From the NCBI GenBank assembly GCA_964396715.1, contig CAYNFQ010000001.1, forward strand, positions 21,037 through 85,036: DNA of 64,000 bases. Reading direction: 5' to 3'. The notes below the pieces were generated by a model, which had not been told where the DNA came from, did no database searches, and saw only the letters and a program-made list of their open reading frames with translations. This document shows, piece by piece, positions 9,233 through 64,000 of the stretch (within the stretch, counting starts at the first letter, position 1; each line of letters begins with the position of its first letter). The DNA comes from an uncultured Gammaproteobacteria bacterium (GTDB lineage Bacteria > Patescibacteriota > Microgenomatia > Daviesbacterales > UBA10151). A program made the position numbers and the translations under genes.

Positions 9233-10090
9233 ATGCTTAAAGCTGAAAAGTTAACTAAAGAATGGGTGGCTAATAAGTTACCTAAAAGGCCAAAAGATGC
9301 AAATAAGGGGACATTTGGCAAAGTTTTAGTAATTGCCGGGTCAGAAAATTATCCTGGAGCAGCATATTTATCCTGTGCAGCTGCATACAGAGTGGGTGGC
9401 GGACTGGTAAGCTTGGTAACTGATGAGGTTGTAAAAATCATAGTGTCCAAAAAATTACCAGAGGTGACATTTTTAGATTATGGTGAAGTGTTTGAAAAAA
9501 TAAGAGACTTTAATGTTTTACTTTTAGGCCCAGGTTTAGGGCAAAGCGAGCAAACTACCAAATTTGTGGAACAACTTTTAGAAAGAGAATTACCACCTGC
9601 TGTAATTGATGGGGATGGGTTAAACATATTATCCAAAATAGATCAGTGGTGGAAGAGATTAAATGCTAATGTCATATTAACTCCTCATCCAGGCGAGATG
9701 GCCAGATTAACTGGTAAAAGTTTAGATCAGATCCAATCTGACAGAGTGAATGTTGCCCAGACTTTTGCCAAAAAATGGAATCAGGCAGTGGTTTTAAAAG
9801 GAGCAAATACTATTATTGCCTCCCCTGGCGGGGAAGTAGGTTTAAGTCCTTTTGCAAATCCGGCACTTGCTACTGCCGGAACAGGAGATGTTTTGTCAGG
9901 AGTGATTGCAGGATTTTTAGCCCAAGGATTAAATAATTTTGATGCAGCTTGTGTGGGGGTTTATATCCATGGTTTGACAGGTGAGATATTAAAAGAAAAA
10001 ATAGGTAACGCGGGAAGTTTGGCGTCAGATTTGCTGTCGCTTCTTCCAAAAGCAATACTTACTCTACATAACCAAATAGGGGGTCAGTAA
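9233..10090 (+). CDS. ADP-dependent NAD(P)H-hydrate dehydratase (YjeF C-terminal carbohydrate-kinase-like domain)
   Basis: GKVLVIAGS..YPGAA and a C-terminal GTGDVLSGVIAG motif, as in the Nnr dehydratase. Confidence 0.8.
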   Translation: MLKAEKLTKEWVANKLPKRPKDANKGTFGKVLVIAGSENYPGAAYLSCAAAYRVGGGLVSLVTDEVVKIIVSKKLPEVTFLDYGEVFEKIRDFNVLLLGPGLGQSEQTTKFVEQLLERELPPAVIDGDGLNILSKIDQWWKRLNANVILTPHPGEMARLTGKSLDQIQSDRVNVAQTFAKKWNQAVVLKGANTIIASPGGEVGLSPFANPALATAGTGDVLSGVIAGFLAQGLNNFDAACVGVYIHGLTGEILKEKIGNAGSLASDLLSLLPKAILTLHNQIGGQ

Positions 10091-11531
10091 TATTGGTATT
10101 TGCTCCTGAGCAGGCATCTTTCATTAACTCATGCGAGGGGATTTCTTGAGGCGTAATTACTCCGATGTGGCCAAACTTAACTTTTACCTCCGCTTTTGCA
10201 TATTCATCAGGGATTACTATGGAATAAACCGGACTGCCTCTGCCCGCAACGGCAATATGGGCGTTTTTTAAATAGAAAAAGTAGCGAAAACCCGTATTCT
10301 CCCCAAAAGAGGTAATATAATTTATGGAAAAGCAGGGGAATTTTTTAACCCTTGCATCATCAACAATAAAGTCAACAACACTTTTTTTCTCCAGATAACC
10401 CTTGTTGTAATAGTTTTGTGTTGTAAGAAAATAAAAATTTTTAAGAGGTATTAACAAAAGTAACGCCAATACCAAAATTTCTTTTTTAAATCGTCTCAAC
10501 AGATAATAAAACGCCAGAGCAATACCTGCAATAAACATTACGTTTGTATTGGTAAAATAATATTCCGAAACAGGAGCAGAAGACAGGGAAAAAAATAAAA
10601 TGGGGCCAATGATCCAGGCATAAAGGGAAACTGTTTCTTTAAAAGAGATTAATTTTGTTTTTATTAACAATATTCCCGATAATAAAAATGCTGCTGTAAA
10701 TAATAAATTGTTTGTTAAATTGAAGGAATTTGGCGCAAAAAGCAGCTGATTGATATTTTTAGTAATCATTCCCAAAACAAGCTGGATTCTATAAAATCCG
10801 GTTGGTCCGCCTTCTTGGCGGAAAGTAAAATTTTCAATTAAGCTCAAGGTTTGAATAAAGTTATGTTTGAATTCAAATAAAATTAAAGGTATGGATGTTA
10901 TAAAAAGAGAAATCAAAAATATTGATATTTGTTTAAAATTCGGAATTTTTCTGGATAAAAATATTGCGGCAGGGACTGCCAAAAGGGTGGGGATTAAGGC
11001 AATATGAATATGCCAGATAAGTCCAATTAAAATCCCCAGCAACCAAAATATGTAAAATTTTCCGCGGGAGAGCATGATAAGTGTATAAAAATACCAGACA
11101 GCCCAAAGTGATGTTGTGATGGTTGGGACAACCCAGCGGTCTGAACCAACTGAAGTCAGAAGCACTGCGTATAAGAATGCCCCTATTAAGCCCACTCCTT
11201 TTTTAAAAATTCTGGAAAAAACCCAGTAGTAACTTATTGTTGTTGTCAAACCTAGTAAAATTGCGAATAAAGCTGCCCCAATAGGATCCATGCGGGTTAT
11301 CATAAAAAAGGGGATTAATAAATAATAAAAGATGGGTCCGATATAAATTCCCGGGGCAGAAGTCAGCTGACCAATCAGTCTGGGGTGGTGATTTATTACT
11401 ATATCCTTAACAATCCAGGAATACAAATCTCCATCATGGGCAAATTCAAACCGCTCCACCACCTGATAAGTTCTGAAAAAAAATGATAAAAGAAGGATGA
11501 AACCCAAAAGTAAAATTTGAGATCGTATCAT
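10059..11531 (-). CDS. GT-C fold polytopic membrane glycosyltransferase-like protein ('DxxD/RD...GPxYYY' paralog family)
   Basis: 490 aa, 10 or more TM helices. The first extracytoplasmic loop reads FAHDGDLY...IGQLTSAPGIYIGPIFYYLL, and the C-terminal extracytoplasmic domain resembles that of the 13278, 15529 and 17012 genes. Confidence 0.6.
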   Translation of the reverse strand: MIRSQILLLGFILLLSFFFRTYQVVERFEFAHDGDLYSWIVKDIVINHHPRLIGQLTSAPGIYIGPIFYYLLIPFFMITRMDPIGAALFAILLGLTTTISYYWVFSRIFKKGVGLIGAFLYAVLLTSVGSDRWVVPTITTSLWAVWYFYTLIMLSRGKFYIFWLLGILIGLIWHIHIALIPTLLAVPAAIFLSRKIPNFKQISIFLISLFITSIPLILFEFKHNFIQTLSLIENFTFRQEGGPTGFYRIQLVLGMITKNINQLLFAPNSFNLTNNLLFTAAFLLSGILLIKTKLISFKETVSLYAWIIGPILFFSLSSAPVSEYYFTNTNVMFIAGIALAFYYLLRRFKKEILVLALLLLIPLKNFYFLTTQNYYNKGYLEKKSVVDFIVDDARVKKFPCFSINYITSFGENTGFRYFFYLKNAHIAVAGRGSPVYSIVIPDEYAKAEVKVKFGHIGVITPQEIPSHELMKDACSGANTNITDPLFGYVE

Positions 11532-11553
11532 ACAGATGTTAAACTATCACACC

Positions 11554-12306
11554 ATGACAGTTCGCGCAATCAAAACAAGAAAATTCTTGCCACCCAAGGA
11601 TCATCTTTGGGATCTCCTGGATTGTATAAAATCATTAAAAGAAGATTCTGTGGTTGCCGTAACCAGTAAAGTTGTCTCAATCGGGGAAGGCAGATGTATT
11701 CCATTTGCAGATTCGACCAAAGATGAGCTGGCAATAAAAGAAGCTGATAGATATATCCCAAGAGCAAAGTCTCCTGGTGGTCATATACTGCATACAATTA
11801 AAAATAATATGCTGATTGCCTCATCCGGAGTTGATGAAAGTAATGGTGATAAATTTTTTATCCTTTGGCCGAAAGATCCGGCAAATTCAGCAAAAAAAAT
11901 ATGGCAATTTTTAAAGAATAAATTTAAGCTAAATTATTTAGGGGTTATCATTACTGACTCAAGGCTTGTACCCCTAAGACGGGGAGTTGTTGGAATTTCA
12001 ATCGGCTACTTTGGTTTTAAGCCATTAAAAGATTATAGAGGGAAAGTAGATTTATTTGGCAGAGAGTTTAAGATGGAGACATCCAATATGCCGGACAGTC
12101 TGGCAACAGTTGCTGTTTTGGAAATGGGGGAAGGTTCGGAAAGCCAACCGATTGCAATTATTGAAGATATTCCCGACATTGAATTTATTCAGAGAGAGTA
12201 TAAGCCAAAATCCCCTGATGACGGTTTTGAAATTGATGAAAAAGAAGATATGTTTTATCCATTTTTATCCTCTGTTAAATGGAGAAAAGGCGGGAGCGGA
12301 AAATAA
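11554..12306 (+). CDS. CofE-like F420-0:gamma-glutamyl ligase family protein
   Basis: VVAVTSKVVSIGEGR and LGVIITDSRLVPLRRGVVGISIGYFGF match the CofE/FbiB N-domain fold. The ATG at 11554 is preferred over the one at 11536. Confidence 0.55.
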   Translation: MTVRAIKTRKFLPPKDHLWDLLDCIKSLKEDSVVAVTSKVVSIGEGRCIPFADSTKDELAIKEADRYIPRAKSPGGHILHTIKNNMLIASSGVDESNGDKFFILWPKDPANSAKKIWQFLKNKFKLNYLGVIITDSRLVPLRRGVVGISIGYFGFKPLKDYRGKVDLFGREFKMETSNMPDSLATVAVLEMGEGSESQPIAIIEDIPDIEFIQREYKPKSPDDGFEIDEKEDMFYPFLSSVKWRKGGSGK

Positions 12307-12317
12307 GGGTATAGCGT

Positions 12318-13244
12318 TTAGGGTATAGGGTTTAGTTTTTTAAAAAAATCAATTGTTCTTTTCAATCCTTCCTCCAGACCTACTTTTGCCTCCCAACCTA
12401 ACTCTGTTTTTAATTTTTGGGCAGATGCAACTAATTCTGGTACATCTCCTTTTCTATCTCCTTTATCCTCAATTGGAACTTCATACCGGACAATTTCAAA
12501 AATCTTTTTTACAACATCGGCAACTTTGGAGCCGGTTTCAGTTCCTACATTATATATCTGAAGACCTGACTGATTCAGAGGTAAAACGTGGGCTTGAGCC
12601 AGGTCATCAATATAAATAAAATCTCTCACTTGCTCTCCTTTCCAAAAAAGTGGAATTGGTTGTTTGGTGAGCGTAGCCCTCACAAAATTCGGAATGGCGT
12701 GTGTTTCCGGAATATGTTCCTCCCCAGGGCCGTAAGGGTTAAAATAACGCAAAATAGTTACATCAAATCCGAAAAGTCTGTGGTACAAAATACAAAACTG
12801 CTCCATTGTCACTTTAGTGATGCCGTAGGGATTTTCCTGCTCTCCTAAAGGGTCATCTTCTGTGATAGGTAATTTTTTGGGAGTACCGTAAACACAGGCG
12901 CTTGAGGAAAAGATCATCTTTTTCACCCCTGTTTTTTTCATTACTTCCAAAAGTTTTACGGTTCCCAGAATATTATTTTCAGTAAACTCAACAGGTCTTT
13001 TGACAGATTCACCTACCTCTATTAAAGAGGCCATATGGATAACCGCATCATGTCCTGTTAAAATTTCCTCAAGTTTGGCTTGGGCGGAGAGATCTACCTG
13101 GTGAAAAGTTGCTCTTGGATCAACGGAGTCTTTGTTGCTATGAGAAAGATTATCAACAATGCTGACAATATGACCCTGCTCCAAAAGCATTTTGGCAACA
13201 TGAGAGCCAATAAATCCGGCACCACCAGTCAGAAGTATCTTCAT
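12318..13244 (-). CDS. galE: NAD-dependent sugar epimerase, UDP-glucose 4-epimerase-like
   Basis: GGAGFIGSH Rossmann motif and a YxxxK catalytic region. 308 aa, GalE-like. Confidence 0.75.
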   Translation of the reverse strand: MKILLTGGAGFIGSHVAKMLLEQGHIVSIVDNLSHSNKDSVDPRATFHQVDLSAQAKLEEILTGHDAVIHMASLIEVGESVKRPVEFTENNILGTVKLLEVMKKTGVKKMIFSSSACVYGTPKKLPITEDDPLGEQENPYGITKVTMEQFCILYHRLFGFDVTILRYFNPYGPGEEHIPETHAIPNFVRATLTKQPIPLFWKGEQVRDFIYIDDLAQAHVLPLNQSGLQIYNVGTETGSKVADVVKKIFEIVRYEVPIEDKGDRKGDVPELVASAQKLKTELGWEAKVGLEEGLKRTIDFFKKLNPIP

Positions 13245-13277
13245 TCTAAGGATTTTATTTTAGCATATAATAAAAAT

Positions 13278-14816
13278 ATGTTTGTAATAAATAGACAAAG
13301 ATTAATTATTCTGTTAACACTTTCGCTAATTTTTACATTTGGAGTTTTCTTAAGATATAAAAATATTGCAGGCTACAATATAGTATTTGATTATGACCAA
13401 ATCGAAGACCAACTTTATACCTATACTATTGCTTTGGATCGGAATTTAGCAATTATCGGACGGGCTGTTTACGGTGATCCCCACCTTCATCACGGAGTAT
13501 TTTATTATTACTATAATCTGATTCCATTCTTACTTTCCTCTGGAAACTTCTTAATCAGTGTTTATTGGAACATTTTTTTTAATGCATCAAGCGCTCTGAT
13601 TCTTTTTATTTTTGCAAAACTGATTTTTAAGAAAAGTCTGCCCGCACTTCTGGCTGCAATTATTGCCGCCTCATCCTTTGAATTTATTAAATTTTCCAAT
13701 TGGTTAACAATTGATACGGTGGCAATAATTTTGGTGCCTCTTTTTTTCCTTGGACTTTGGAATTATTACGAGCACAAAAAATGGGGCCTAATTTTATCTG
13801 CCGTAACTGGGGGACTATCCATACAGACTGATCTATCATTTTTATATCTCATACTAATTTTAATAATTTATTGGTTCGTTTTCAGACCGAAAATTCCAGA
13901 CTTAAAATTACTTCTTTTATCAGCCTTAAGCTTTTTAGTTGTAATTTCAACATTAATTCTTACAGAGATTAAACTGAATTTTGCAGGAGTAAAAACTTTA
14001 CTTAACTTTTCCAATATTTCTGAAGCAACCAGTTTATCTTATACAGAAAGATTACATTTATTCTTTGAGGATTTTTTAACAAACTTTACTAATAATTTAT
14101 TTCCACAAAAACCGGAGCTTGGTATTTTTTTGGCTGGTGCTGTTATTTTAACTCTTGCTTACTTCTTATTTTCAAATAAAACCCCAAGACAAGAAAAAAA
14201 GGGGATCTACTTCTTACTGATATACCTTTTTGCCCCGGCAACTACATTGCTCATTGGATATCATGATAAACCATGGTTTTTAATCGGGTTACCGCCGGCC
14301 ATAGCTTTAATTTCCGGATATGCTATTTCAAAATTGAATAATCTATACCTGATAATACCAATAATATTTCTGATTATTGGCAGCAACACCAATATAATTT
14401 TGCAAAGACCGAACGAAGCTTATAAATTATTTGACAATATTTACGACTCAACCTCATATCTTAAATACCAACTACAAGTTGTTGACTATACCTATTTGGC
14501 ATCAGGAGGACAACCGTTTGCCATCAATGCGGTTACCTACCCTCTTTATTACAATGGCATGTGGGCATATCTTTATTCATGGTATGGGAAGAGTCGTTAT
14601 CAATATCTACCTGGATGGCTTGGTGGGGATCAACTCCATCCTTATGACCTTCTCCCTAAAGTTAATGAGGAAAAAATCTTTTATATGATTATTAGTGAAA
14701 CTGCAAGGATACCAGATATCTATAAAAATCAGGGGAAATTTTGGGCTCTTAAGAGAGGAAAATTAATTGAGGAAAAAATCTTTACCGGCTTTACAGTATT
14801 GAAAATGGAAAAATAG
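13278..14816 (+). CDS. GT-C fold membrane glycosyltransferase-like protein (paralog family A)
   Basis: Polytopic. Loop motif DYDQIEDQLY...GDPHLHHGVFYYYYNLIP, and a C-terminal domain GGQPFAINAVTYPLYYNGMWAYLYSWYGKSRYQYLPGW shared with the 15529 and 17012 genes. The ATG at 13278 is chosen because the 13080 start would overlap galE. Confidence 0.6.
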   Translation: MFVINRQRLIILLTLSLIFTFGVFLRYKNIAGYNIVFDYDQIEDQLYTYTIALDRNLAIIGRAVYGDPHLHHGVFYYYYNLIPFLLSSGNFLISVYWNIFFNASSALILFIFAKLIFKKSLPALLAAIIAASSFEFIKFSNWLTIDTVAIILVPLFFLGLWNYYEHKKWGLILSAVTGGLSIQTDLSFLYLILILIIYWFVFRPKIPDLKLLLLSALSFLVVISTLILTEIKLNFAGVKTLLNFSNISEATSLSYTERLHLFFEDFLTNFTNNLFPQKPELGIFLAGAVILTLAYFLFSNKTPRQEKKGIYFLLIYLFAPATTLLIGYHDKPWFLIGLPPAIALISGYAISKLNNLYLIIPIIFLIIGSNTNIILQRPNEAYKLFDNIYDSTSYLKYQLQVVDYTYLASGGQPFAINAVTYPLYYNGMWAYLYSWYGKSRYQYLPGWLGGDQLHPYDLLPKVNEEKIFYMIISETARIPDIYKNQGKFWALKRGKLIEEKIFTGFTVLKMEK

Positions 14817-15473
14817 ATGAGTCAATCGAGTAAGTTAAGAAACCATAAGCTATATCAGATTTGGAGTCAGGTGCCGGTGACCTACTATCAGCAGGGTGTG
14901 GAAAATAATCTTTTCCAAAAACTTTGGCATTCCCATAAAATTAATCTTGCCAAAAATATACTGAACAACCTCAATTTTAAAAATTGTCTTGATGTTGGCT
15001 GCGCCAGCGGCTTTATGATTTCAGAAATAGCTGCAACATTTCCTAAGGCAAACTATTTCGGTATTGATATTTATGATGAGGCGATTAAATATGCCAGGAA
15101 AACCTACCCCTCTATAGAATTTAAAGTTGCTTCCGCTGCAAAGCTACCTTTTAAAAATAATTACTTTGATCTGATCTTATTTTATGAAACGATTGAGCAT
15201 GTAGAAAACCCTAAGGAATGTTTAAGGGAAATTAAAAGAGTTTTAAAAAAAGATGGAATTTTGATTCTGACGATGGATTCCGGTAGTTTACTGTTTAGAC
15301 TAGTTTGGTTTATTTGGGAAAAGTCAAAAGGCAAAATTTGGAAAGGGGCTCATTTGCACCCTTTTCATCATAAAGCACTTGAGCAGATTATAGGAGATGC
15401 CGGTTTTAAAATAAGAGATAAGATATTTTCTTTTCTGGGGATGGAGGTTACCTTTGTATTAAGCAAACAATAG
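14817..15473 (+). CDS. class I SAM-dependent methyltransferase
   Basis: LDVGCASG motif I and a Methyltransf_11-like layout. Its ATG overlaps the upstream stop. Confidence 0.8.
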   Translation: MSQSSKLRNHKLYQIWSQVPVTYYQQGVENNLFQKLWHSHKINLAKNILNNLNFKNCLDVGCASGFMISEIAATFPKANYFGIDIYDEAIKYARKTYPSIEFKVASAAKLPFKNNYFDLILFYETIEHVENPKECLREIKRVLKKDGILILTMDSGSLLFRLVWFIWEKSKGKIWKGAHLHPFHHKALEQIIGDAGFKIRDKIFSFLGMEVTFVLSKQ

Positions 15474-15528
15474 TCAGCAGAGTGTTGCAAGTTGCATTTT
15501 CCAATACGATTAGTATATCTTGATTGCG

Positions 15529-18508: not shown

Positions 18509-18530
18509 ATTGATATAATGATTTAAATCA

Positions 18531-20085: not shown

Positions 20086-20100
20086 ATCTTTATACTAACA

Positions 20101-21291: not shown

Positions 21292-21299
21292 TCATCTCT

Positions 21300-22839: not shown

Positions 22840-22842
22840 TCA

Positions 22843-23292: not shown

Positions 23293-23336
23293 ATATGTAA
23301 CTTATATTAACAGTAAATTGAGTAATTTGTCTACCC

Positions 23337-24431: not shown

Positions 24432-24449
24432 GTAGGAATTATATCCTAC

Positions 24450-25429: not shown

Positions 25430-25433
25430 ATAC

Positions 25434-28758: not shown

Positions 28759-28762
28759 TTAT

Positions 28763-28791: not shown

Positions 28792-28799
28792 AACAAAAT

Positions 28800-32187: not shown

Positions 32188-32188
32188 A

Positions 32189-38073: not shown

Positions 38074-38077
38074 ATTT

Positions 38078-57454: not shown

Positions 57455-57473
57455 TTTAAATCATTAAAACAAA

Positions 57474-58274
57474 ATGTTAAGTGTAATAGTTATCACCAAA
57501 AACGAACAAGACAGAATAAGGGTTTGCCTGGAATCTGTTAAATGGGCTGATGAAATTGTTGTTGTGGATAATGGCTCAGTTGATAAAACGCTAGATTTGG
57601 CCAAAAAATACACGGATAAAATTTTTACATTTGATGATTTGGATTTTGCCTCACTTAGAAATAGGGGAATGGAGAAGGCGAGGGGAGATTGGGTATTGTA
57701 TGTTGATTCTGATGAAAGAGTACTGGCCTCGCTCAAAGAAGAAATTGAAAGTTTAATGCAAAAAGATCAATTCAGCGCCTATGCAATATCCAGAAAAAAT
57801 GTGATTTTAGGAGAGGAAGTAAGTTATGGTCCCTACAAAAAAGATTGGGTTGTCAGGCTTTTTCAAAAAAAGAATTTTGAGCTCTGGAGCGGTCAAGTGC
57901 ATGAATCCGCCCATTTCAAAGGAAAACTTGGATACACGAAGAATCTTCTTCTTCATTTAACTCATCGTGATATTGACCAGATAGTTTTAAAAAGTCTGGA
58001 GTGGTCCAAAATTGACGCAAAGTTAAGACATGATAGTAATCACCCAAAAATGTCCGGTTGGAGATTTTTAAGGATTCTGCTTAGTGAGTTTTTTAATCAG
58101 GGAATTAAAAGGGGTGGCTTTTTCAATGGAACAGTTGGGATTGTAGATTCAACGTTACAAGTCTTCAGTTTATTTATTACCTTTGTCAGGCTTTGGCAAA
58201 TGCAGCAGGAGAAACCGATGGATAAAATTTATGAGGAAATTGATAACAATTTGATAGAAAACGGATTCAAATGA
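57474..58274 (+). CDS. GT2 glycosyltransferase, WaaE/KdtX-like subfamily (paralog of the 56564 gene)
   Basis: LSVIVITKNEQDR ... WADEIVVVDNGS ... VDSDE motifs. Confidence 0.8.
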   Translation: MLSVIVITKNEQDRIRVCLESVKWADEIVVVDNGSVDKTLDLAKKYTDKIFTFDDLDFASLRNRGMEKARGDWVLYVDSDERVLASLKEEIESLMQKDQFSAYAISRKNVILGEEVSYGPYKKDWVVRLFQKKNFELWSGQVHESAHFKGKLGYTKNLLLHLTHRDIDQIVLKSLEWSKIDAKLRHDSNHPKMSGWRFLRILLSEFFNQGIKRGGFFNGTVGIVDSTLQVFSLFITFVRLWQMQQEKPMDKIYEEIDNNLIENGFK

Positions 58275-59338
58275 AAATAGCAATTTACTCTCCTTATTTA
58301 GATACCCTGGGTGGGGGAGAAAGGTATATTGCAGCAATTGCTGAAATCCTGTCTAAAAAACATAGTGTAGATTTATTTTTTGATAATCACCTGCAATCTT
58401 TCGGCATAGACATTCTCAAGAAACAGCTTTCGGAGAGATTCAATTTAGACCTTTCAAAAGTTAATGCAATAAAAGCACCAATAGGGACGACTTCCAGTAT
58501 TTTTCAAAGACTACTTTTCTTAAGAAGATATGATTTATTGATTTATTTAACAGACGGGAGTCTTTTTTTATCAACTGCCAAAAAGAACATTTTACATATT
58601 CAGTCTCCCCTGCCAGGGCCTAAAAGCTTTTGGGGTAGAATAAAACTTAAGAGTTGGGATGTCATAATTTATAATTCCCAGTTTACAAAGACAAATTCTT
58701 ATAAAAATTGGCCAATTTCATCATCAATTGTTTATCCTCCGGTTGATGTCAAAAAAATTAAACCCCTGAAGAAGAAAAATTATATATTATCGGTAGGAAG
58801 GTTTTTTGGGTATTTAAAAGACAAAAAACAAGAAGTTTTGATTGAAGTTTTCAAGGACCTTTACGATACAAATGAGATAAAGAATTGGAGTTTACATTTG
58901 GCAGGAGCTGCCTCGAAGGGAGATAAACCTTACCTTAATGAGTTACAGAGTTTGGCTAAGGGTTTTCCAATTTATTTTTATCCTAATTTAGAATTTGAGG
59001 AATTAGTTAAATTATACGGGCAATCAAGTATTTACTGGCACGCTTCCGGATATAAAGAAGATGATCCCACCAGGATGGAACATTTTGGCATCAGTACGGT
59101 TGAAGCAATGGCAGGAGGTTGTGTTCCGGTCGTTATTAAAAAAGGCGGACAAGTAGAGATAGTAAGAGATGGAAAGTGTGGTTTTTTGTGGGACAGCGTA
59201 GATCAGTTAAAGGACTTTACTGTAAAATTAATTATTGATGAAAGACTGAGGGGAAAAATGGCAAATGTTGCTATTTTGGAAGCTGCTCGGTTTTCCAAAG
59301 ATAAATTCAGAGATAGTATTTTAAAAATTATCAAATAA
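58271..59338 (+). CDS. GT4 (GT-B fold, group 1) glycosyltransferase
   Basis: C-terminal EHFGISTVEAMAGGCVPVV...GG (E-x7-E region). A 4-bp overlap couples it to the upstream gene. Confidence 0.85.
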   Translation: MKIAIYSPYLDTLGGGERYIAAIAEILSKKHSVDLFFDNHLQSFGIDILKKQLSERFNLDLSKVNAIKAPIGTTSSIFQRLLFLRRYDLLIYLTDGSLFLSTAKKNILHIQSPLPGPKSFWGRIKLKSWDVIIYNSQFTKTNSYKNWPISSSIVYPPVDVKKIKPLKKKNYILSVGRFFGYLKDKKQEVLIEVFKDLYDTNEIKNWSLHLAGAASKGDKPYLNELQSLAKGFPIYFYPNLEFEELVKLYGQSSIYWHASGYKEDDPTRMEHFGISTVEAMAGGCVPVVIKKGGQVEIVRDGKCGFLWDSVDQLKDFTVKLIIDERLRGKMANVAILEAARFSKDKFRDSILKIIK

Positions 59339-59339: not shown

Positions 59340-60458
59340 ATGAAGAAAATTTGGATAATTTTAACTGTAGCAATAGCATTGAGAATATTTTTATCCTTTG
59401 CCACACTTCATCCCGATATTGTCTCGCTCATGGAGGGAGGGAAGGTTTTAACAAGGGGGCATATTTTAGATCTGTATGATTATAGTTCGGATAAAATTGT
59501 TTTTAATTATCCACCGTCAATTTATTGGTATTTCGGCTTATTAAACTTCCTTTTCAGCTCTTTGGGGTTTTTAAAACTGCCTTATATAATTTTTGATATT
59601 GCAATAGCAACACTTCTTTCCAAAATGGCTGGTCCGAAAAAATCAATGGCCGCATTTGCATTATGGTTGTTTAATCCGGTAAGCATTTACGCAACTTACA
59701 TGATGGGACAGTTTGATATTATCCCCACTTTTTTCTCTGTACTTTCAATATATTTGGCTTTCAAAACTAGATTGAGCTGGTCTGCTTTTGCTTTAGGGAT
59801 GGGTATTGCATTTAAGCTATACCCCCTGTTTTTAGTTGTTCCTTTAATCCTTTTGGGAAAAGGTTTTTGGACTAAAGTTAAGCTGGTAATCTTTGCCCTG
59901 ATACCTTATTTAGTTTCTGTTTTGCCATACATTCAATCATCCAGTTTTAGATCACAGGCTTTATTTGCCAATCAGAGTTCAAAAAGTTTATATGCTGCAA
60001 TCCCCGTTTCAGGAGGGGAGGCTATCTTGCTGTTTCCTTTGTTTCTGCTGCTTTTTTATCTTTATATTTGGAACAGGCAAAACAGTACAATGAATTTATG
60101 GAAAGTTTTCTTAATACCATTGCTTTTATTTTTTATTCTTACACACTACCATCCACAGTGGCTAATATGGGTAATACCATTTTTAATTTTGGGTTTGGTA
60201 ATTAACAATTTTCAAAACTTATATTTATACGTTTTGATTTTGGGAAGCTGGTTTTTCTCCCTTTTCTTTTTTGATTCTTCTTTGACGTTAGGAATGCTTG
60301 CTCCTCTTTTTCCTGCCTTAAGGGAAATTCCCGATATCTGGACAATTTTGGGTATTGGCGTAGATTACAATTTGGCAAGGAGTATTTTACAAACAGTTTT
60401 TGCTTCAGCTTCTTTCTACCTTATTTATACTTATTTTCCAAAGAAAGAAAATGCTTAA
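59340..60458 (+). CDS. polytopic membrane protein, DUF2029/GT87-like candidate glycosyltransferase
   Basis: 372 aa, about 10 TM helices, WLFNPVSIYATYMMGQFDIIPTFF ... FKLYPLF blocks. Confidence 0.45.
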   Translation: MKKIWIILTVAIALRIFLSFATLHPDIVSLMEGGKVLTRGHILDLYDYSSDKIVFNYPPSIYWYFGLLNFLFSSLGFLKLPYIIFDIAIATLLSKMAGPKKSMAAFALWLFNPVSIYATYMMGQFDIIPTFFSVLSIYLAFKTRLSWSAFALGMGIAFKLYPLFLVVPLILLGKGFWTKVKLVIFALIPYLVSVLPYIQSSSFRSQALFANQSSKSLYAAIPVSGGEAILLFPLFLLLFYLYIWNRQNSTMNLWKVFLIPLLLFFILTHYHPQWLIWVIPFLILGLVINNFQNLYLYVLILGSWFFSLFFFDSSLTLGMLAPLFPALREIPDIWTILGIGVDYNLARSILQTVFASASFYLIYTYFPKKENA

Positions 60459-61881
60459 AACGGGTGTGATTTTAATTACCTTTATTATAGCTGGATGGTT
60501 TTTACTTACCTTTAAATTAACAGATGTCCCCCCGGGGATTAACGGAGATGAGGCGGCAATTGGGTTAAATGCAATATACGTTGCAAAGGATGGTTATGAT
60601 TTGAAAGGTAATTTTTTGCCGATTTTTACATCCCTTCCGGATTCTTCGGATTGGAAACAACCGATAACATTTTATTCCGAAGTATTGGCATTTAAATTTT
60701 TTGGACCATCATACTTTACTTTAAGAGCTGTAAGCGTTTTTTATGTGCTTTTATCTGCCGTATTAATTTTTTCTTTAATAAAAATGCTTTTAGGAAGGTT
60801 TTTGGCAAGCTTAGGAGTACTGCTTTTTCTAACCACTCCAATTATGGTAATCCAATCACATTTGGCAATGGAAAATATAGCACCGATTCCATTTGTTATA
60901 CTCTGGTTGATTGGAATTTTGAAATACAGCCAACAAGGAAAAGAGCGCTATCTTGTTTTGATGGGGTTAAGTTTAATTGCAGCTTTTTACTCTTATTTGG
61001 GAATGAGGCTTATGGTGCCGATTTTATTTTTGTTGTCGGCAGCACTTATTTTATATGCGAACAGGCAAAAAAAATTAAAAGTTTTGCTGCGGCAGGAAAT
61101 TATCTTCGCTGTCTTATTTATACCTTTTGCAATTTCATTATTATTTTTTAAAAATCAATATCCCGGATCTCTTTGGGGATTATACAGGCCATATATAGTT
61201 GATTCTTACCAAACCTTTTTTCTGCCATACTTTTCTAATTTTGACCCATCTTTTTTGTACATATTTGGGGATACAACTCCGTATCATTCAACCGGCAAAT
61301 ATGGCATGTTTTTGATTGCGACCCTGCCACTGTTTATTTTAGGAATCATCAAAATAGTCAAGTTGAATCAACTGATACCAAATTTTATAATACTGTCATT
61401 TTTCTTACCCCCTATTTTATTTGGATTTGGCTCCACAATTCATAGGGCAAGCAGGCTTTTAGGTTTAGTGCCAGTGTATGTGATTATTTGTTGTTACGGG
61501 CTAATTTTTCTACTTGAGTATAAAAGGATTTTTAAAGTACCAATTTTATTTGTCGGAGTTTTGCTTATTTTTTTAAATTTTTCGGATTTTATTAAAGACT
61601 ACTGGTTTGAGTATCCCAAAAGAGTGCAATCAGAATTTGCCAGGCCTTATCATTTAGGATTTGAAAAATTATATGAGGAATCAAAAAAACATAATTTGAT
61701 ACCTTTGGTGCAAAATGATCTGCATATGCAAAATTCTACAGCATTTAGTTTTTTTGAGCTTACTTTTTTCCCGCAACCTGTAAAAAAATGGTCTAACCTG
61801 GAAAAAATCCCTCCAAGGAGTGCGATACTGATAGGAAGTGGCAGTGATTTTCGTATTATGATTAATAAAAATGACAGATGA
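60451..61881 (+). CDS. PMT/ArnT-like GT-C glycosyltransferase
   Basis: The ATG at 60451 overlaps the upstream stop. First-loop GINGDEAAIGLNAIY DE motif. Polytopic. Confidence 0.65.
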   Translation: MLKTGVILITFIIAGWFLLTFKLTDVPPGINGDEAAIGLNAIYVAKDGYDLKGNFLPIFTSLPDSSDWKQPITFYSEVLAFKFFGPSYFTLRAVSVFYVLLSAVLIFSLIKMLLGRFLASLGVLLFLTTPIMVIQSHLAMENIAPIPFVILWLIGILKYSQQGKERYLVLMGLSLIAAFYSYLGMRLMVPILFLLSAALILYANRQKKLKVLLRQEIIFAVLFIPFAISLLFFKNQYPGSLWGLYRPYIVDSYQTFFLPYFSNFDPSFLYIFGDTTPYHSTGKYGMFLIATLPLFILGIIKIVKLNQLIPNFIILSFFLPPILFGFGSTIHRASRLLGLVPVYVIICCYGLIFLLEYKRIFKVPILFVGVLLIFLNFSDFIKDYWFEYPKRVQSEFARPYHLGFEKLYEESKKHNLIPLVQNDLHMQNSTAFSFFELTFFPQPVKKWSNLEKIPPRSAILIGSGSDFRIMINKNDR

Positions 61882-63494
61882 AACCTAAGATATGGCTGAT
61901 CGGTTTATTGTTTATTGCAGCGCTTTTTATAAGATTGGTTCCCATAAATTACCCTTTTTTTAGCGAAGAAGAAACAAGAATTGCCTACAGGGGTTATACG
62001 CTCTCTATCTTTGGCACTGATGAGCTGGGCCGTAAATTTCCCTTTATTTTTAATTCCTCGTCCGATTATCAGTTACCGGTAGCCTCCTATACTACAGCTT
62101 TGGGCACTGCTATATTTGGAAAAACAGATTTTGGGGCAAGAATAATGTTTGTTCTTATCGGCACTCTGGTAGTATTTTTAACTTATAAAGTAGCTCCCCT
62201 GTTTTCCTTTGGGAAACAATATGCTTTTTTTAGCGCATTAATTGTTGCTTTTTCTCCGGTACTGATCTTTTTTTCCAAAATACCCAATGAATTTATCATT
62301 CTGATACTTTTAATCCTCGTCTTACTATACCTCCTTTCCAGAAAGAAAATAAATTATTTTTTTGTTTTTGGCAGTATTTTTTTTGTTTTACTGACATCCA
62401 AACTTGCCTGGTTTATTTTGCCCCCCTTTATTACACTGACTGTTTTTTCATTTGATCTTAATTTATCCAGAAAGCAAAAAGTTAAATTTTCTATTTTCAG
62501 CCTCTTTTTATCTTTCATTATGATTATTGTATTTTTACAAATTCCCCAAGGACAAAGGAGTTTTTTGGAAAATAATTTTTATACTTTGCAGGGTGGCACT
62601 ATTAAAAATGCAATAGAAACTTTAAGAGGGCAGGGTTTGGAATCTCGCTGGCCTAATCTTTTGGAAAAGTTTTTGTTTAATAAAGGAGAATATTTTTTTG
62701 TCGGGACAATGCATTGGTTATTGCATCTTCAGCCAAGCGTCTTGTTTGGTCAATTTGACAACAGTAGCAAATATAGTTTTATAAGCATGGGGGCATACCC
62801 TAAAATTCTGATAATCCCTTTTATTTTAGGTCTGGTTTCACTTATCAAGAAAAGTTCGGATATCAAAACTAGAACACTCTTTATTTATCCGCTTATTTTA
62901 ACTTACCCTTTAAGTTTTATTTATCCGCTGCAAAATCCCCAAATTGTTATATTAATTTTACCGTTTTTATCTTTCGTCTGTGCTTTTGGTTTAATAAATT
63001 TAACTAAACCCATAAAGAGTTTAATTGTCATCCTGGCTATCTTAGAATTATTAATCAATTCATTTAATCCTTCTTTTGATTCGAAAGTTGCAAATAGTTT
63101 CCGTCCGAATTGGATTAAAAATATTGTAAATGAAGGATATGTTTTATCAAAAGACGCCAATGTGGCAATTTCTGACGATATTACCTCAGATATCACCCCC
63201 TTTTTGCAATGGCATACATTTGTTGGTATTGAAAATGCTGCCGTAGGCCAATTTCCTTATAAATTTCACCAGACACAACTTCAAAATATTAAAATTATTG
63301 GCTCAGACGACATTTTTTATAATTGTGGTTTTGATAAACCCACCTTTATTATTGCCAGCAAGCGCGATTATAAAGAAATTAAAAGGTGGTTAAATATAAC
63401 TACTGATGAGAAATTGACAAAGGTATATAAAGATAACCTGGAACAGGAGGTAGCAAATCTTTTGGAGCCAACCATATGCGTACGCAAATCTTAA
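61878..63494 (+). CDS. PMT/ArnT-like GT-C glycosyltransferase
   Basis: First-loop FFSEEETRIAYRGY acidic motif. Polytopic with a C-terminal soluble domain. A 4-bp overlap couples it to the upstream gene. Confidence 0.6.
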   Translation: MKPKIWLIGLLFIAALFIRLVPINYPFFSEEETRIAYRGYTLSIFGTDELGRKFPFIFNSSSDYQLPVASYTTALGTAIFGKTDFGARIMFVLIGTLVVFLTYKVAPLFSFGKQYAFFSALIVAFSPVLIFFSKIPNEFIILILLILVLLYLLSRKKINYFFVFGSIFFVLLTSKLAWFILPPFITLTVFSFDLNLSRKQKVKFSIFSLFLSFIMIIVFLQIPQGQRSFLENNFYTLQGGTIKNAIETLRGQGLESRWPNLLEKFLFNKGEYFFVGTMHWLLHLQPSVLFGQFDNSSKYSFISMGAYPKILIIPFILGLVSLIKKSSDIKTRTLFIYPLILTYPLSFIYPLQNPQIVILILPFLSFVCAFGLINLTKPIKSLIVILAILELLINSFNPSFDSKVANSFRPNWIKNIVNEGYVLSKDANVAISDDITSDITPFLQWHTFVGIENAAVGQFPYKFHQTQLQNIKIIGSDDIFYNCGFDKPTFIIASKRDYKEIKRWLNITTDEKLTKVYKDNLEQEVANLLEPTICVRKS

Positions 63495-64000
63495 GTAAAT
63501 ATACATACATAATAATCATCATTTTAATTGGGGCCTTTTTGCGGTTTTATAAATTATCCGAATTTCCCCCTCAGTTAAACCATGATGAAATATCCCAACT
63601 ATATGACGCTATCTCTATTGCACAAACAGGAAAAGATGTTTATGGTAATTTCCTCCCCGTAGTATTTCAATCAACAGGAGATTATAAACCGGCCCAATAT
63701 ACCTATCTTTCCACCATACCCTATTTATTTTGGGGCGATCAGGAAATAACTATCAGGATTACTGCGGCATTTTTTGGGACATTAACTATTGGAGCTGTTT
63801 TTTTGTTTATGAATGCATTAACTAAAAATTTTAACTTAGCCCTTCTTTGCAGTGCAATGATTGCCATTACTCCTTCGGAGATTTTCTATTCCAGAAAAAG
63901 TTTTGAAAGTGTTATTGGAGTCACTCTTTACTTTTTTGGCTTATTTTGTTTACTAAATCTTTTAGAAAAGACCAAAGTAAAAATTTGGGGATATTTGGCA
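63476..64000 (+). CDS. PMT/ArnT-like GT-C glycosyltransferase, 3'-truncated by the window edge
   Basis: The ATG at 63476 overlaps the upstream stop. QLNHDEISQLYDAI DE motif. The frame stays open to the window end. Confidence 0.55.
   Translation, partial: MRTQILSKYTYIIIIILIGAFLRFYKLSEFPPQLNHDEISQLYDAISIAQTGKDVYGNFLPVVFQSTGDYKPAQYTYLSTIPYLFWGDQEITIRITAAFFGTLTIGAVFLFMNALTKNFNLALLCSAMIAITPSEIFYSRKSFESVIGVTLYFFGLFCLLNLLEKTKVKIWGYLA

Follow-up and report, generated by a model that had tools for sequence, protein, structure and literature searches.

The window, the whole stretch of 64,000 nucleotides that was analysed, corresponds to NCBI contig JACPUL010000012.1 of Candidatus Daviesbacteria, a CPR bacterium from groundwater with a genome of ~1 Mb, in agreement with the CPR-like host suggested in an earlier note on this DNA. 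Positions 10059-64000 encode 17 GT-C membrane glycosyltransferases (at least 16 had been proposed). Five GT2 enzymes accompany them, three of which resemble polyprenyl-phosphate-sugar synthases, along with a GT4, a Wzx flippase and homologues of the nucleotide-sugar enzymes GalE, RmlA/B/C and Gmd (Table 1). Glycosylation genes occupy 72.6% of the bases in these 53.9 kb, and GT-C genes 52%. The accessory genes named in the earlier note (GT4, Wzx, galE, rmlA/B/C, gmd and a SAM methyltransferase) were all found by Pfam or NCBIfam scores. NCBIfam did not confirm the WaaE-like label given there to two GT2s. No RmlD follows RmlC in the window; it is present at that place in a relative (L086).

Table 1. 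Features of the glycosylation region and its surroundings. Scores are profile matches; genes are named in the text by their first coordinate.
Feature	Positions	Strand	Characteristics
Ser/Thr/Pro-rich secreted or anchored protein	4912-6033	-	sequence composition
GT-C family A, paralog 1	10059-11531	-	490 aa, ~10 TM, loop-1 HDGD; PMT_2 17 bits, below threshold
UDP-glucose 4-epimerase GalE	12318-13244	-	Epimerase 225.6 bits; TIGR01179 262.4, cutoff 262.3
GT-C family A, paralog 2	13278-14816	+	512 aa; BLAST to 15529 E 1e-33
SAM-dependent methyltransferase	14817-15473	+	Methyltransf_11 88 bits; 0-bp gap to 13278
GT-C family A, paralog 3	15529-17019	+	ARD...IIGPPTS...GPLYYY; PMT_2 17.2 bits, below threshold
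GT-C family A, paralog 4	17012-18508	+	PMT_2 22.9 bits, below threshold
tsaE, M23 peptidase, ftsEX, release factor, PIN protein, CAP protein	18531-26318		interrupts cluster
Ser/Thr/Pro-rich secreted or anchored protein	18952-20085	-	sequence composition
RmlA-like glucose-1-phosphate thymidylyltransferase	26481-27212	+	NTP_transferase 197 bits; TIGR01207 243.6, below cutoff 360.65
dTDP-glucose 4,6-dehydratase RmlB	27213-28217	+	TIGR01181 448.8 bits, cutoff 365.1
RmlC, dTDP-4-dehydrorhamnose 3,5-epimerase-like	28207-28758	+	dTDP_sugar_isom 146 bits
Gmd, GDP-mannose 4,6-dehydratase-like	28800-29816	+	GDP_Man_Dehyd 321.5 bits; TIGR01472 312.5, below cutoff 415
Archaeal-DPMS-type polyprenyl-phosphate hexose synthase	29816-31000	+	Glycos_transf_2 72.7 bits, GtrA_DPMS_TM 76.4 bits
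GT-C, PMT_2-type	30997-32163	-	388 aa per NCBI record; PMT_2 28.6 bits, cutoff 26.1
Fusion of GtrB/ArnC-like GT2 (TM hairpin) and family A GT-C module	32189-34345	+	Glycos_transf_2 95.8 bits, PMT_2 40.8 bits
Soluble GT2, ArnC/GtrB/DPMS class	34342-35100	+	Glycos_transf_2 99.6 bits; 4-bp overlap with 32189
Restriction-modification pair, peroxiredoxin-like gene, large lipase-like protein	35151-40835		interrupts cluster
GT-C, PMT_2-type	40899-42407	+	loop-1 DE (FADEAIY); PMT_2 44.8 bits
GT-C family B (PTPS_related), paralog 1	42414-44063	+	PF10131 27.1 bits, cutoff 26.4
GT-C family B (PTPS_related), paralog 2	44044-45756	+	PF10131 39.9 bits
Wzx-type (MOP family) lipid-linked glycan flippase	45758-47230	+	Polysacc_synt_3 172.7 bits; ~13 TM
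Family C, long form	47227-50619	+	signal/anchor helix, ectodomain, GT-C module
Family C, short form	50616-52601	+	661 aa; GT-C without family model
GT-C, PMT_2-type	52598-54217	+	loop-1 DE (YGDELT); PMT_2 38.9 bits
GT-C, YfhO family	54214-56499	-	761 aa; YfhO 61.3 bits, cutoff 28.5
GT2, soluble	56564-57454	+	Glycos_transf_2 65.1 bits; NCBIfam likeness generic only
GT2	57474-58274	+	Glycos_transf_2 73.5 bits
GT4 (GT-B fold)	58271-59338	+	Glycos_transf_1 85.1 bits
GT-C, GT87 (formerly DUF2029)/PIG-U-like	59340-60458	+	GT87 27.5 bits, cutoff 25; PIG-U 24 bits
GT-C, PMT_2-type	60451-61881	+	loop-1 DE (NGDEAA); PMT_2 35.3 bits
GT-C, PMT_2-type	61878-63494	+	loop-1 EEE, not DE; PMT_2 32.9 bits
GT-C, PMT-type	63476-64000	+	cut by window end, 544 aa complete; PMT 25.8 bits, cutoff 22.7

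The region had been described as a 54-kb island in which most genes are coupled by 4-bp overlaps. The coupling was overstated, as just seven junctions between genes on the same strand have an overlap of exactly 4 bp. The region is also discontinuous, being broken up by housekeeping genes and by a restriction-modification insertion, and other Daviesbacteria are syntenic. The term island is misleading: this is a chromosomal supercluster of three blocks that has been conserved, rather than an island that is mobile or was acquired horizontally. Its GC content is 0.32-0.42 vs 0.36-0.45 in the flank, and no mobility genes were found by Pfam.

A 90-kb contig assembled independently from run SRR12113425 has a gene order identical to that of the window, and synteny was also found in three other Daviesbacteria genomes. 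Directly beyond the window end the contig carries four more GT-C genes, so that window and continuation together hold at least 21 over ~63 kb. Among the genes following 63476 are a second Wzx, a GT2, a GT4 and, as GT-Cs, three further PMT-like genes and a Mannosyl_trans2 gene. The comparison also covered environmental loci, each at least 15 kb long and carrying a homologue of family C (described below), with flanks limited to 10 kb. All 40 are equally rich in GT-C genes (mean 8.4 per ~20 kb, range 3-13), and 34 contain at least two family C genes. Within these limited flanks Wzx is present in 24 loci and missing from 16. Genes for PTPS_related, GT2, GT2, GT4, GT87 and PMT_2 proteins are recurrent.

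Eleven of the 17 GT-C proteins reach Pfam gathering scores (PMT_2, PMT, PTPS_related, YfhO or GT87); the PMT_2 score is reached by 30997, the 32189 fusion, 40899, 52598, 60451 and 61878. The genes 40899, 52598, 60451, 61878 and 63476 are PMT/ArnT-like as proposed, except that the loop-1 DE motif ascribed to all five is replaced by EEE in 61878. The gene call of 60451, which opens a tandem run of PMT-like genes, agrees with the independent contig. The family previously recognized by its RD...IGPPTS...GPLYYY motif (family A) was borne out by BLAST links of 10059, 13278, 15529 and 17012 to one another and to the PMT_2 domain of 32189 (E 1e-15 for 10059). 13278 has no Pfam or NCBIfam match. It is included in the alignment behind the family A profile, which hhalign pairs with the PMT_2 group at 98% probability (E 2e-13), the acidic motifs of loop 1 being in register. 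The two family B proteins are 33% identical, and their profile matches the PMT_2 group (96.3%) and family A (95.5%).

Family C appears to be a previously unclassified, oligosaccharyltransferase-shaped GT-C pair. Neither 50616 nor the C-terminal part of 47227 has a sequence match in Pfam, NCBIfam or PDB, including any STT3 Pfam signal. In a confident AlphaFold model the nearest folds are STT3, AglB and PglB, with the C-terminal domain included, and oligosaccharyltransferases rank first in two independent searches. Enzymes of this shape glycosylate proteins in archaea and eukaryotes. In the loop HGHDGxWH of 50616, D136 is invariant. The signature motif WWDYG is approximated in 50616 and its Daviesbacteria orthologues (WYDTG); neither the paralog 47227 nor the wider family conserves it, which makes oligosaccharyltransferase activity hypothetical. 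In 47227 the GT-C module (residues ~500-1130) follows a predicted extracytoplasmic ectodomain (residues ~28-460) with a DUF3863-type glycoside-hydrolase/deacetylase fold, resembling DUF3863 (3lm3, the closest), CE4 deacetylases and ArnD. The predicted fold of family C and this ectodomain go beyond the earlier note. Overlaps of 4 bp chain Wzx (45758) to 47227, 47227 to 50616 and 50616 to 52598.

The three GT2s previously assigned as polyprenyl-phosphate-sugar synthases do have polyprenyl-phosphate glycosyltransferases as their nearest solved structures. The protein 29816, a GT2 catalytic domain with a GtrA/DPMS 4-TM domain, aligns with P. furiosus Dol-P-Man synthase (5mlz) along almost the entire protein (residues 3-351, E 3.8e-24). 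The N-domain of 32189 (residues 4-308, TM hairpin included) matches ArnC (9hwj, E 6e-16) and GtrB (5eke, E 7e-16). Its fusion architecture is common to the best 120 matches listed, all at least 61% identical, and the named organisms among them are Daviesbacteria or Patescibacteria. PDB entries of ArnC, GtrB and DPMS match 34342 with E-values of 1e-13 to 6e-12, and its nearest NCBIfam model is PgfS, far under cutoff.

Judged from sequence, the region is most likely a lineage-wide, lipid-carrier-dependent machinery for surface glycans. That it serves extracytoplasmic glycosylation on lipid carriers, as the earlier note held, is very probable, and each testable part of that reading held. Sugars would be added mostly on the membrane's outer face. 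By homology, the GalE, RmlA/B/C and Gmd enzymes would supply nucleotide sugars, and 29816, the N-domain of 32189 and 34342 would charge polyprenyl phosphate with single sugars for the 17 GT-C enzymes, which have conserved acidic loop-1 residues. After flipping, each of the diverged GT-C paralogs (20-35% identical to one another) may be specific for a single sugar and a single linkage, taking the sugar from its polyprenyl-phosphate donor and adding it to surface proteins or to a glycan under construction. In the 32189 fusion, donor synthesis would be coupled directly to donor use. The soluble GT2, GT2 and GT4 (56564-59338) could build a lipid-linked oligosaccharide in the cytoplasm, to be flipped by Wzx 45758, consumed by the family C pair and handed over to the final acceptor, with the 47227 ectodomain editing the glycan. 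Family C is the best candidate transferase because it is translationally coupled to wzx and its fold is closest to STT3/AglB/PglB. Nearby genes encode surface proteins rich in Ser, Thr and Pro, and these are plausible as acceptors. That one or several complex glycoconjugates of the cell surface are built by the supercluster, with polyprenyl phosphate as the carrier, is rather probable; the combination of Wzx with GT-C elongation has an even chance, and en bloc transfer by family C is proposed only tentatively. Pfam found no initiating phosphoglycosyltransferase, Wzy polymerase, WaaL ligase or LCP protein in the window, and none was recurrent in the 40 related loci, where the 14 largest families of unassigned ORFs were judged by sequence reading. 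The Wzx-dependent branch is thus incomplete as seen. Wzx-type proteins such as GacK also flip C55-P-monosaccharides (PMC8035078), in which case an en bloc transferase would not be needed.

An artefact (transporters unrelated to GT-Cs, a chimeric assembly or a mobile island gained recently) is extremely improbable. Six of the 17 GT-C genes (families A and C) lack a Pfam match above threshold and the source is a metagenome-assembled genome. However, profile-profile and fold evidence places every family in GT-C rather than among transporters, as previously claimed, and the chimera considered in the earlier note is contradicted by the gene order shared with the independent contig and the three Daviesbacteria genomes. 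Together with the synteny in the 40 environmental loci, the GC content, the lack of mobility genes and the interspersed core genes (ftsEX, release factor, tsaE), this effectively refutes the artefact reading. It is possible, if rather unlikely, that the region comprises independent Gtr-type three-component modules, each a GT2 synthase with at least one GT-C, that decorate pre-existing polymers (teichoic-acid-like, wall polysaccharide or peptidoglycan) with single side-chain sugars. Wzx would then be a GacK-like polyprenyl-P-monosaccharide flippase and family C another single-sugar GT-C. GT-A/GT-C pairs with a GtrA- or Wzx-type flippase are an established pattern, and both B. subtilis and L. 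lactis have three such pairs in one genome (PMC8035078). The three synthase-like GT2s, the unconserved WWDYG and the failure to find an initiating transferase or polymerase fit such modules, but three synthases for at least 21 GT-Cs allow no simple pairing. The soluble GT2, GT2, GT4 and Wzx genes also recur jointly across loci, suggesting a cytoplasmically assembled oligosaccharide, and the fold ranking of family C argues the same way against single-sugar modules.

Two readings centred on particular acceptors were weighed against the proposed Wzx and GT-C scheme. Mainly protein O-glycosylation, with PMT/PMT_2 paralogs of differing substrate or sugar specificity acting on disordered, Ser/Thr-rich parts of surface proteins, as in actinobacterial Pmt, streptococcal GtrB/PgtC2 and Pgf, is unlikely. 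Ser/Thr-rich regions are glycosylated in streptococci via GtrB and a GT-C enzyme (PMC11092751). Ten PMT/PMT_2-type genes lie inside or beside the window, most with loop-1 DE, and the PgfS-like 34342, a GalE gene as in the pgf operon and the two Ser/Thr/Pro-rich proteins point in the same direction. Yet PMT_2 is broad enough to cover ArnT-like glycosyltransferases of lipids and polymers, and a match therefore leaves the acceptor unspecified; the NCBIfam scores are far under cutoffs, and the GT87, PTPS_related and YfhO genes and the Wzx/GT4 components are left unexplained. A mycobacterial-style lipoglycan or wall heteropolysaccharide (compare LM/LAM and arabinogalactan), whose synthesis by successive GT-Cs with polyprenyl-P-mannose or similar donors would lie almost entirely outside the membrane, is improbable. 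It would suit the DPMS/Ppm1-like synthase, the GDP-mannose pool implied by Gmd, and the GT87, Mannosyl_trans2 and many PMT_2-type GT-Cs. Among bacteria, comparable GT-C gene numbers are known only from Mycobacteriales, where they serve lipoglycans and wall polymers. Against it, Pfam gave no Emb- or Aft-type matches (Arabinose_trans, DUF3367) in the window, and there is no sign of a lipid anchor pathway.

Among known systems, STT3/AglB/PglB, from the lipid-linked-oligosaccharide pathways of the ER, archaea and Campylobacter, appear to share their fold and C-terminal domain with family C, which sits directly downstream of Wzx. The ER pathway has similar parts: a flippase and a Dol-P-Man-synthase-like GT2, with GT4/GT2 enzymes in the cytoplasm and many GT-Cs on the far side of the membrane. 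Unlike these oligosaccharyltransferases, family C has no sequence-level match to STT3 models, approximates WWDYG only in 50616 and its Daviesbacteria orthologues, has three extra N-terminal TM helices and includes a copy fused to the deacetylase/hydrolase-like ectodomain. The ArnC/ArnD/ArnT lipid A pathway differs in that ArnA and ArnB homologues are absent from the cluster, the 47227 domain is nearer DUF3863 than ArnD, and lipid A is not known in CPR bacteria of this group.

Gtr-type three-component systems (GtrB/CsbB/GtlA, GtrA/GtcA or a Wzx-type flippase, and GtrC/YfhO/GtlB/GacL; PMC8035078) have a similar parts list: membrane-linked GT2 synthases (29816, 32189 N-domain, 34342), a GtrA-type TM domain, a Wzx-type flippase and PMT_2- and YfhO-type GT-Cs. 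The scale differs, with at least 21 GT-Cs in ~63 kb vs 1-3 GT-A/GT-C pairs in the Firmicutes reviewed (PMC8035078), as do the sharing of three synthases by all GT-Cs, the 32189 fusion, the oligosaccharyltransferase-like family and the CPR host. Streptococcal O-glycosylation (GtrB/PgtC2; Pgf: PgfS, PgfM1, PgfM2, PgfE; PMC11092751) likewise combines a GT2 synthase, a GT-C and a UDP-sugar 4-epimerase; the likeness extends to PgfS and the nearby surface proteins, but the family scores are low and the GT-C paralogs here are far more numerous. The mycobacterial and corynebacterial enzymes (Emb, Aft, Mpt, PimE and Pmt with Ppm1) also comprise many diverged GT-Cs, GT87- and PMT-type members included, with a polyprenyl-P-sugar synthase and glycans made outside, although the Daviesbacteria cluster is without Emb/Aft-type families and belongs to an unrelated phylum. 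In Mycobacteriales a similar number of GT-C genes is scattered over a ~4 Mb genome, whereas here they form one supercluster in ~1 Mb. About half of a 54-kb stretch in a CPR bacterium with a tiny genome thus appears to be devoted to 17 membrane sugar-transfer enzymes.

Every ORF in the window was translated and scanned against Pfam. Eleven of the 17 GT-C candidates score at or above the gathering score of a GT-C family (see table; genes are named by their start coordinates). The remaining six fall below the cutoff or lack a Pfam model and are backed by hhalign profile comparisons (98% and 90.6%), in family C also by fold. In family A (10059, 13278, 15529, 17012 and the GT-C module of 32189), the genes 10059, 15529 and 17012 match PMT_2 at 17-23 bits, under the cutoff of 26.1, and 13278 has no Pfam match at all; NCBIfam has no model for this family. 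No GT-C family model in Pfam matched 13278 or the two family C genes, 47227 and 50616. Family A members are related to each other and to the PMT_2 domain of 32189 (BLAST, E 1e-33 to 3e-5). A five-sequence family A profile aligned with four PMT_2-type paralogs over its N-terminal 190 columns (hhalign 98%, E 2e-13), and the acidic motifs of the first extracytoplasmic loop (loop 1) coincide in this alignment. The earlier note had proposed these genes as a GT-C family on the pattern RD...IGPPTS...GPLYYY, and the proposal is borne out, via BLAST and hhalign rather than Pfam cutoffs. The PTPS_related pair (family B) aligned with the PMT_2 group at 96.3% and with family A at 95.5%. The YfhO, GT87 and 30997 proteins, compared as single sequences with a small PMT_2 alignment, gave 0.7-23% in what is an underpowered comparison, so their GT-C status relies on the Pfam scores.

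The 17 GT-C genes counted by Pfam, BLAST, hhalign and fold agree with the proposed minimum of 16. They occupy 28.1 kb, or 52% of 10059-64000, and the 29 glycosylation-related genes together occupy 72.6% of it. Each candidate with a complete gene has 6-11 transmembrane segments in a hydropathy scan, and the GT-C three-dimensional fold is present. A loop-1 DE motif, which the earlier note gave for all five PMT/ArnT-like genes, was found in 40899, 52598, 60451 and 63476; in 61878 it is replaced by EE (the sequence reads EEE). The corresponding acidic motif is D..RD or DGD in family A and D/HDD in family B. Pairwise identities between the paralogs are 20-35% (BLAST), by which they are judged to be anciently diverged.

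Coordinates of the GT-C matches in Pfam, the blocks and gaps of the cluster, and its continuation
Feature	Location	Strand	Content
PMT_2 match	30997	-	Pfam gathering score
PMT_2 match	32189		C-terminal half; Pfam gathering score
PMT_2 match	40899		Pfam gathering score
PMT_2 match	52598		Pfam gathering score
PMT_2 match	60451		Pfam gathering score
PMT_2 match	61878		Pfam gathering score
PMT match	63476		Pfam gathering score; gene cut by window end
PTPS_related match	42414		Pfam gathering score
PTPS_related match	44044		Pfam gathering score
YfhO match	54214	-	Pfam gathering score
GT87 (former DUF2029) match	59340		Pfam gathering score
Glycosylation block 1	10059-18508
Gap 1	18531-26318		tsaE, Ser/Thr-rich surface protein, M23 peptidase, ftsX, ftsE, release factor, PIN protein, short TsaB-like ORF, CAP-domain protein
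Glycosylation block 2	26481-35100
Gap 2	35151-40835		DNA methylase, TdeIII/HinfI-type endonuclease, peroxiredoxin-like protein, 847-aa secreted lipase-like protein
Gap 2, type II restriction-modification pair	35151-37177	+	N6_N4 DNA methylase and TdeIII/HinfI-type endonuclease
Gap 2, further gene	37516-38073	+	peroxiredoxin-like
Gap 2, further gene	38292-40835	-	847-aa secreted protein
Glycosylation block 3	40899 onward
Continuation past 64000	L085 (contig from SRR12113425) 11599-21617		rest of 63476, three more PMT/PMT_2, GT2, GT4, Mannosyl_trans2/PIG-V-like GT-C, second Wzx

The initial 10 kb of the window carry housekeeping genes (LysRS, two HD-domain proteins, SerRS, SecA, NAD(P)HX dehydratase). 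What follows had been described as one continuous cluster of 54 kb; it is instead three blocks separated by two gaps. Blocks 2 and 3 directly adjoin each other in a second Daviesbacteria genome (L086; GCA_900217965.1), and gap 2 therefore looks like a strain-specific local insertion in the present genome. Its 847-aa secreted protein combines a LamG-like 3-keto-disaccharide-hydrolase domain with an LCAT/lipase alpha/beta-hydrolase domain. Overlaps of exactly 4 bp, which the earlier note ascribed to most genes, occur at only 7 same-strand junctions; several further junctions overlap by 1-20 bp or abut, and an operon organisation of the cluster is plausible. Scans for tRNA genes and Rfam families gave no match in the window.

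Two small features of this stretch are recorded here. Within block 1, a CofE-like gene (11536-12306, +; F420-0:gamma-glutamyl ligase family, 112 bits) lies 4 bp from the divergent GT-C gene 10059; to our knowledge, F420 metabolism would be unexpected in CPR bacteria. In gap 1, a 100-aa ORF (25127-25429, +) aligns to the TsaD/TsaB Pfam model over positions 30-84 only and overlaps the PIN-domain gene by 4 bp. A 106-aa counterpart exists in L086 (208-528), so the ORF appears to be a genuine short protein and not a broken gene.

The cluster does not end with the window. From 50616 onward the gene order is the same on an independent 90-kb contig (SRR12113425), which extends the cluster by at least 8 kb and adds four GT-C genes. 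With the continuation, the GT-C count rises to at least 21 over about 63 kb, including seven PMT-like genes in tandem; the second Wzx past the window end suggests a second flipped substrate. As this contig was assembled independently, an assembly chimera, named in the earlier note as a possible objection, is not what the data indicate. The identical 61878 protein was found on 12 assembled contigs. The closest relatives of the window proteins are named Daviesbacteria, in agreement with the CPR-like, reduced-genome organism that had been supposed, and in relatives these genes lie on contigs of 1.02 and 1.15 Mb, pointing to a genome size near 1 Mb.

Two other Daviesbacteria assemblies, with family C orthologues of 70% and 55% identity, share the locus order (two to three PTPS_related genes, Wzx, a protein of ~1150 aa, a protein of ~665 aa, PMT_2, GT2s, GT4 and a variable number of PMT genes) and differ locally in copy number. 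When metagenomes were scanned with the family C alignment, 80 loci with 37-70% identity came back and were annotated by phmmer with window proteins as queries; the counts cover the 40 loci of at least 15 kb. All 40 are rich in GT-C genes, with a mean of 8.4 recognisable ones (range 3-13), or 4.2 per 10 kb. This mean is an undercount: more PMT-like families turned up among the unmatched ORFs of those loci. PTPS_related, two GT2, GT4, GT87 and PMT_2 genes recur across the 40 loci, Wzx is present in 24 and at least two family C genes in 34. By its predicted gene content, the GT-C-rich cluster is a conserved trait of the lineage with variable copy number.

The region had also been called an island. 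The flank-like GC and the synteny in other Daviesbacteria and in the 40 environmental loci speak against horizontal acquisition. GC runs at 0.32-0.45 over the whole window with no break in composition at the cluster edges, and no window gene matched an integrase or transposase in Pfam. Only gap 2 resembles a local insertion.

Content and copy number also vary between Daviesbacteria genomes (L082 7565-9924; L084 2113-3378 and 16322-17800; L086 14820-21471), with two to four PTPS_related paralogs, extra GT2s and extra PMT_2 genes between both family C genes. Such copy-number variation is typical of surface-glycan loci under diversifying selection. In 19 of the 40 environmental loci a family C gene adjoins a gene for a ~200-aa protein that combines a beta-rich domain with a single TM helix at its N-terminus, usually located between the family C and GT87 genes (e.g. 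L147 10787-11464 (-), and loci L121, L122, L124 and L104). The protein may be an accessory or acceptor-recognition subunit. It is absent from the window, where tblastn gave no match below E 1.6.

Family C consists of a short form, 50616 (661 aa), and the C-terminal part of a long form, 47227, which also carries a deacetylase/hydrolase-like ectodomain; the identity between 50616 and the last 630 residues of 47227 is 31.6%. Scans of Pfam and NCBIfam and a phmmer search of PDB found no sequence match, and at E<=10 none was found for 24 members against Pfam or for the 24-sequence family profile against PDB sequences. In a profile search of 1.84 billion cluster representatives (50% identity clusters) the family comprised 1773 clusters at E<=1e-3, of which 938 pass E<=1e-30, with short forms of ~550-670 aa and long forms of ~1000-1170 aa. 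The profile matches that of family A from residue 98 (hhalign 90.6%, E 1.3e-6), and in many members the sequence begins near profile position 95. Helices 1-3 of 50616 are accordingly read as an N-terminal extension before a canonical GT-C module of ~13 TM helices. Seven residues (D136, Y167, H168, K305, P362, G411, Q465) are invariant among 51 diverse members; D136, in HGHDGxWH, lies in the region aligned with the loop-1 acidic motif of family A.

The AlphaFold2 model of 50616, built from 24 sequences, is confident (pLDDT 85.5, pTM 0.89) and has about 16 TM helices, about 13 of them after the N-terminal extension. A low-confidence loop (351-393) contains WW[FY]IRTM, the most conserved stretch of the family. 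In Foldseek the 16 best matches were all STT3, PglB, AglB or the C-mannosyltransferase DPY19 (E 7e-9 to 1e-6), with the next GT-C classes far weaker (AftA 2e-4, ArnT 1e-3). The predicted structure is thus most similar to the oligosaccharyltransferase TM domain, and the model also has a C-terminal extracytoplasmic globular domain of the oligosaccharyltransferase type.

The fold ranking, the C-terminal domain and the position beside Wzx (Wzx, 47227, 50616 and 52598 are linked in series by 4-bp overlaps) were counted in favour of an oligosaccharyltransferase. The defining motif of these enzymes is WWDYG. In 50616 and its Daviesbacteria orthologues AWYDTGY, followed by K-x-T-L-x-x-D (K-Q-T-L-L-S-D), aligns without gaps with WWDYGY...R-T-T-L-V-D of STT3. 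The paralog 47227 reads FVYDSTAY at this position, and among the 51 diverse members the W and D are not conserved, T571 and Y573 being the only majority residues. A WWDYG-like motif was therefore rejected as a feature of the family. An initial guess for a DK motif in 50616, D586xxQ589xxxM593, was also dropped, as D586 aligns better with the Asp of STT3 TLVD. The invariant Y167, H168 and K305, the near-invariant R416 and WW[FY]IRTM are candidates, from conservation, for the second DxD/DxE, the EL5 TIxE/SVSE, DK/MI and the pyrophosphate-binding Arg.

Since WWDYG is absent and only the architecture is alike, family C is filed, on its predicted model, as a new GT-C family with oligosaccharyltransferase-like architecture and not as a member of the STT3/AglB/PglB family. 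That it is instead a deeply diverged branch of the latter, and that Daviesbacteria and related Microgenomates run an ER/archaeal-like lipid-linked-oligosaccharide pathway, is considered unlikely. In such a pathway GT2 and GT4 enzymes would assemble the oligosaccharide in the cytoplasm and Wzx would flip it; GT-C enzymes would elongate it outside with polyprenyl-P-sugars from the DPMS-type synthase, the fused deacetylase/hydrolase domain would edit it, and transfer to surface proteins would be en bloc. If true, this would mean general protein glycosylation in CPR bacteria by a family of enzymes not yet recognised in any database.

Among the nucleotide-sugar enzymes, RmlB clears the NCBIfam equivalog cutoff well and GalE just clears it; RmlA-, RmlC- and Gmd-like proteins have strong Pfam scores and are under the equivalog cutoffs. 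Between rmlC and gmd (28758-28800) there is no RmlD (dTDP-4-dehydrorhamnose reductase), which L086 has at that place (3915-4805). Within the window the dTDP-rhamnose pathway is thus incomplete, unless a different SDR enzyme takes over this step or RmlD is encoded in another part of the genome.

Three GT2 proteins had been proposed as polyprenyl-phosphate-sugar-synthase-like, and among solved structures they are indeed closest in sequence to that class. Residues 3-351 of 29816 align with the dolichol-phosphate mannose synthase of Pyrococcus furiosus (5mlz, E 3.8e-24), and 29816 also carries a GtrA_DPMS_TM domain (76.4 bits, Pfam). For 32189, the first 300 residues match ArnC and Synechocystis GtrB, TM hairpin included (E ~6e-16), and 34342 consists of a soluble catalytic domain from this ArnC/GtrB/DPMS class. 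The architecture of 32189, a GtrB-like synthase fused to a GT-C module, is kept in all 120 best matches listed, each at least 61% identical, and the named organisms among these are Daviesbacteria or Patescibacteria. The other two GT2s, 56564 and 57474, are generic, leaving the label "WaaE-like" of the earlier note without confirmation; 58271 is a GT4 (Pfam) and 45758 a Wzx-type MOP flippase (Polysacc_synt_3, 172.7 bits). The window contains predicted membrane-linked C55-P-sugar synthases of GT-A fold and predicted GtrA-type and Wzx-type flippases. The predicted GT-C enzymes would use polyprenyl-(pyro)phosphate-linked sugar donors on the outside, in keeping with the co-located synthase-like GT2 genes.

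In multi-component transmembrane glycosylation a GT-A enzyme loads C55-P, a GtrA- or Wzx-type protein flips the product and a GT-C enzyme transfers the sugar outside (PMC8035078). By analogy, the predicted parts of the cluster fit this logic. GT-C transferases are present; a Gtr-type system in the strict sense also has a defined acceptor polymer. The cytoplasmic GT2/GT2/GT4 set together with Wzx would imply a lipid-linked oligosaccharide, and the oligosaccharyltransferase-like family C pair would then sit at the place expected for its consumer. Bac_transf, Glycos_transf_4, Wzy_C and LCP have no matches in any window gene (Pfam), and no initiating phosphoglycosyltransferase, Wzy, WaaL or LCP was evident when sequences of the 14 largest unassigned-ORF families of the 40 loci were read by eye. 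Of the Wzx/Wzy-dependent pathway the window contains Wzx only, and its partners may be encoded in another part of the genome. For GacK and other Wzx-type proteins, flipping of C55-P-monosaccharides has been proposed (PMC8035078). With these enzymes missing and flipping of the GacK type a precedent, the en bloc branch of the scheme is the least secure.

Two proteins encoded nearby are plausible glycoprotein substrates of the machinery, judging by their composition. One (18952-20085, -; 377 aa) has a C-terminal TM anchor, Ser/Thr/Pro-rich low-complexity linkers and many N-x-S/T sites; the other (4912-6033, -; 373 aa) is a Pro/Thr/Ser/Gln-rich membrane protein with long low-complexity linkers. 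Streptococci O-glycosylate such Ser/Thr-rich regions via GtrB and a GT-C enzyme (PMC11092751).

All single enzyme classes of the cluster are already known, and the genes bear generic annotations in public records. What appears to be undescribed is how densely GT-C genes are packed in a CPR genome of ~1 Mb and how well they are conserved, the oligosaccharyltransferase-like family C without a family model, and the two fusion architectures (GtrB-like with GT-C, deacetylase-like with GT-C). No report of GT-C enzymes or glycosylation in CPR, Patescibacteria, Microgenomates or Daviesbacteria was found in the open-access literature, which does not prove that the subject is unpublished. All of this is read from sequence and predicted structure.

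CPR bacteria are extremely small, most of them have not been cultured, and they probably live attached to other cells; almost nothing is known of their surface chemistry. A genome of ~1 Mb that devotes more than 60 kb to at least 21 GT-C enzymes and the genes that supply them, in an arrangement repeated in every related locus examined, has made a large and conserved investment. Its size and conservation suggest an elaborate surface glycan with a central part in the biology of the lineage, perhaps in attachment to a host, in defence against phages or in keeping the envelope intact. Family C is sizeable (1773 clusters), has no Pfam or NCBIfam model and is structurally nearest to oligosaccharyltransferases. 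Together with the fusions, it provides concrete targets for enzymology and glyco-engineering and bears on how far oligosaccharyltransferase-like chemistry has spread among bacteria.

Compared with known systems, family C resembles STT3/AglB/PglB in fold ranking and in the type of its C-terminal domain, and differs from them in lacking any sequence match to their family models or solved sequences. The Firmicutes reviewed have about three GT-A/GT-C pairs (PMC8035078). From multi-component (Gtr-type) systems the cluster differs in scale and combination, with three synthases for at least 21 diverged GT-C enzymes. The proposed scheme would be closer to the ER N-glycan pathway and to the building of mycobacterial lipoglycans than to a simple side-chain decoration system.
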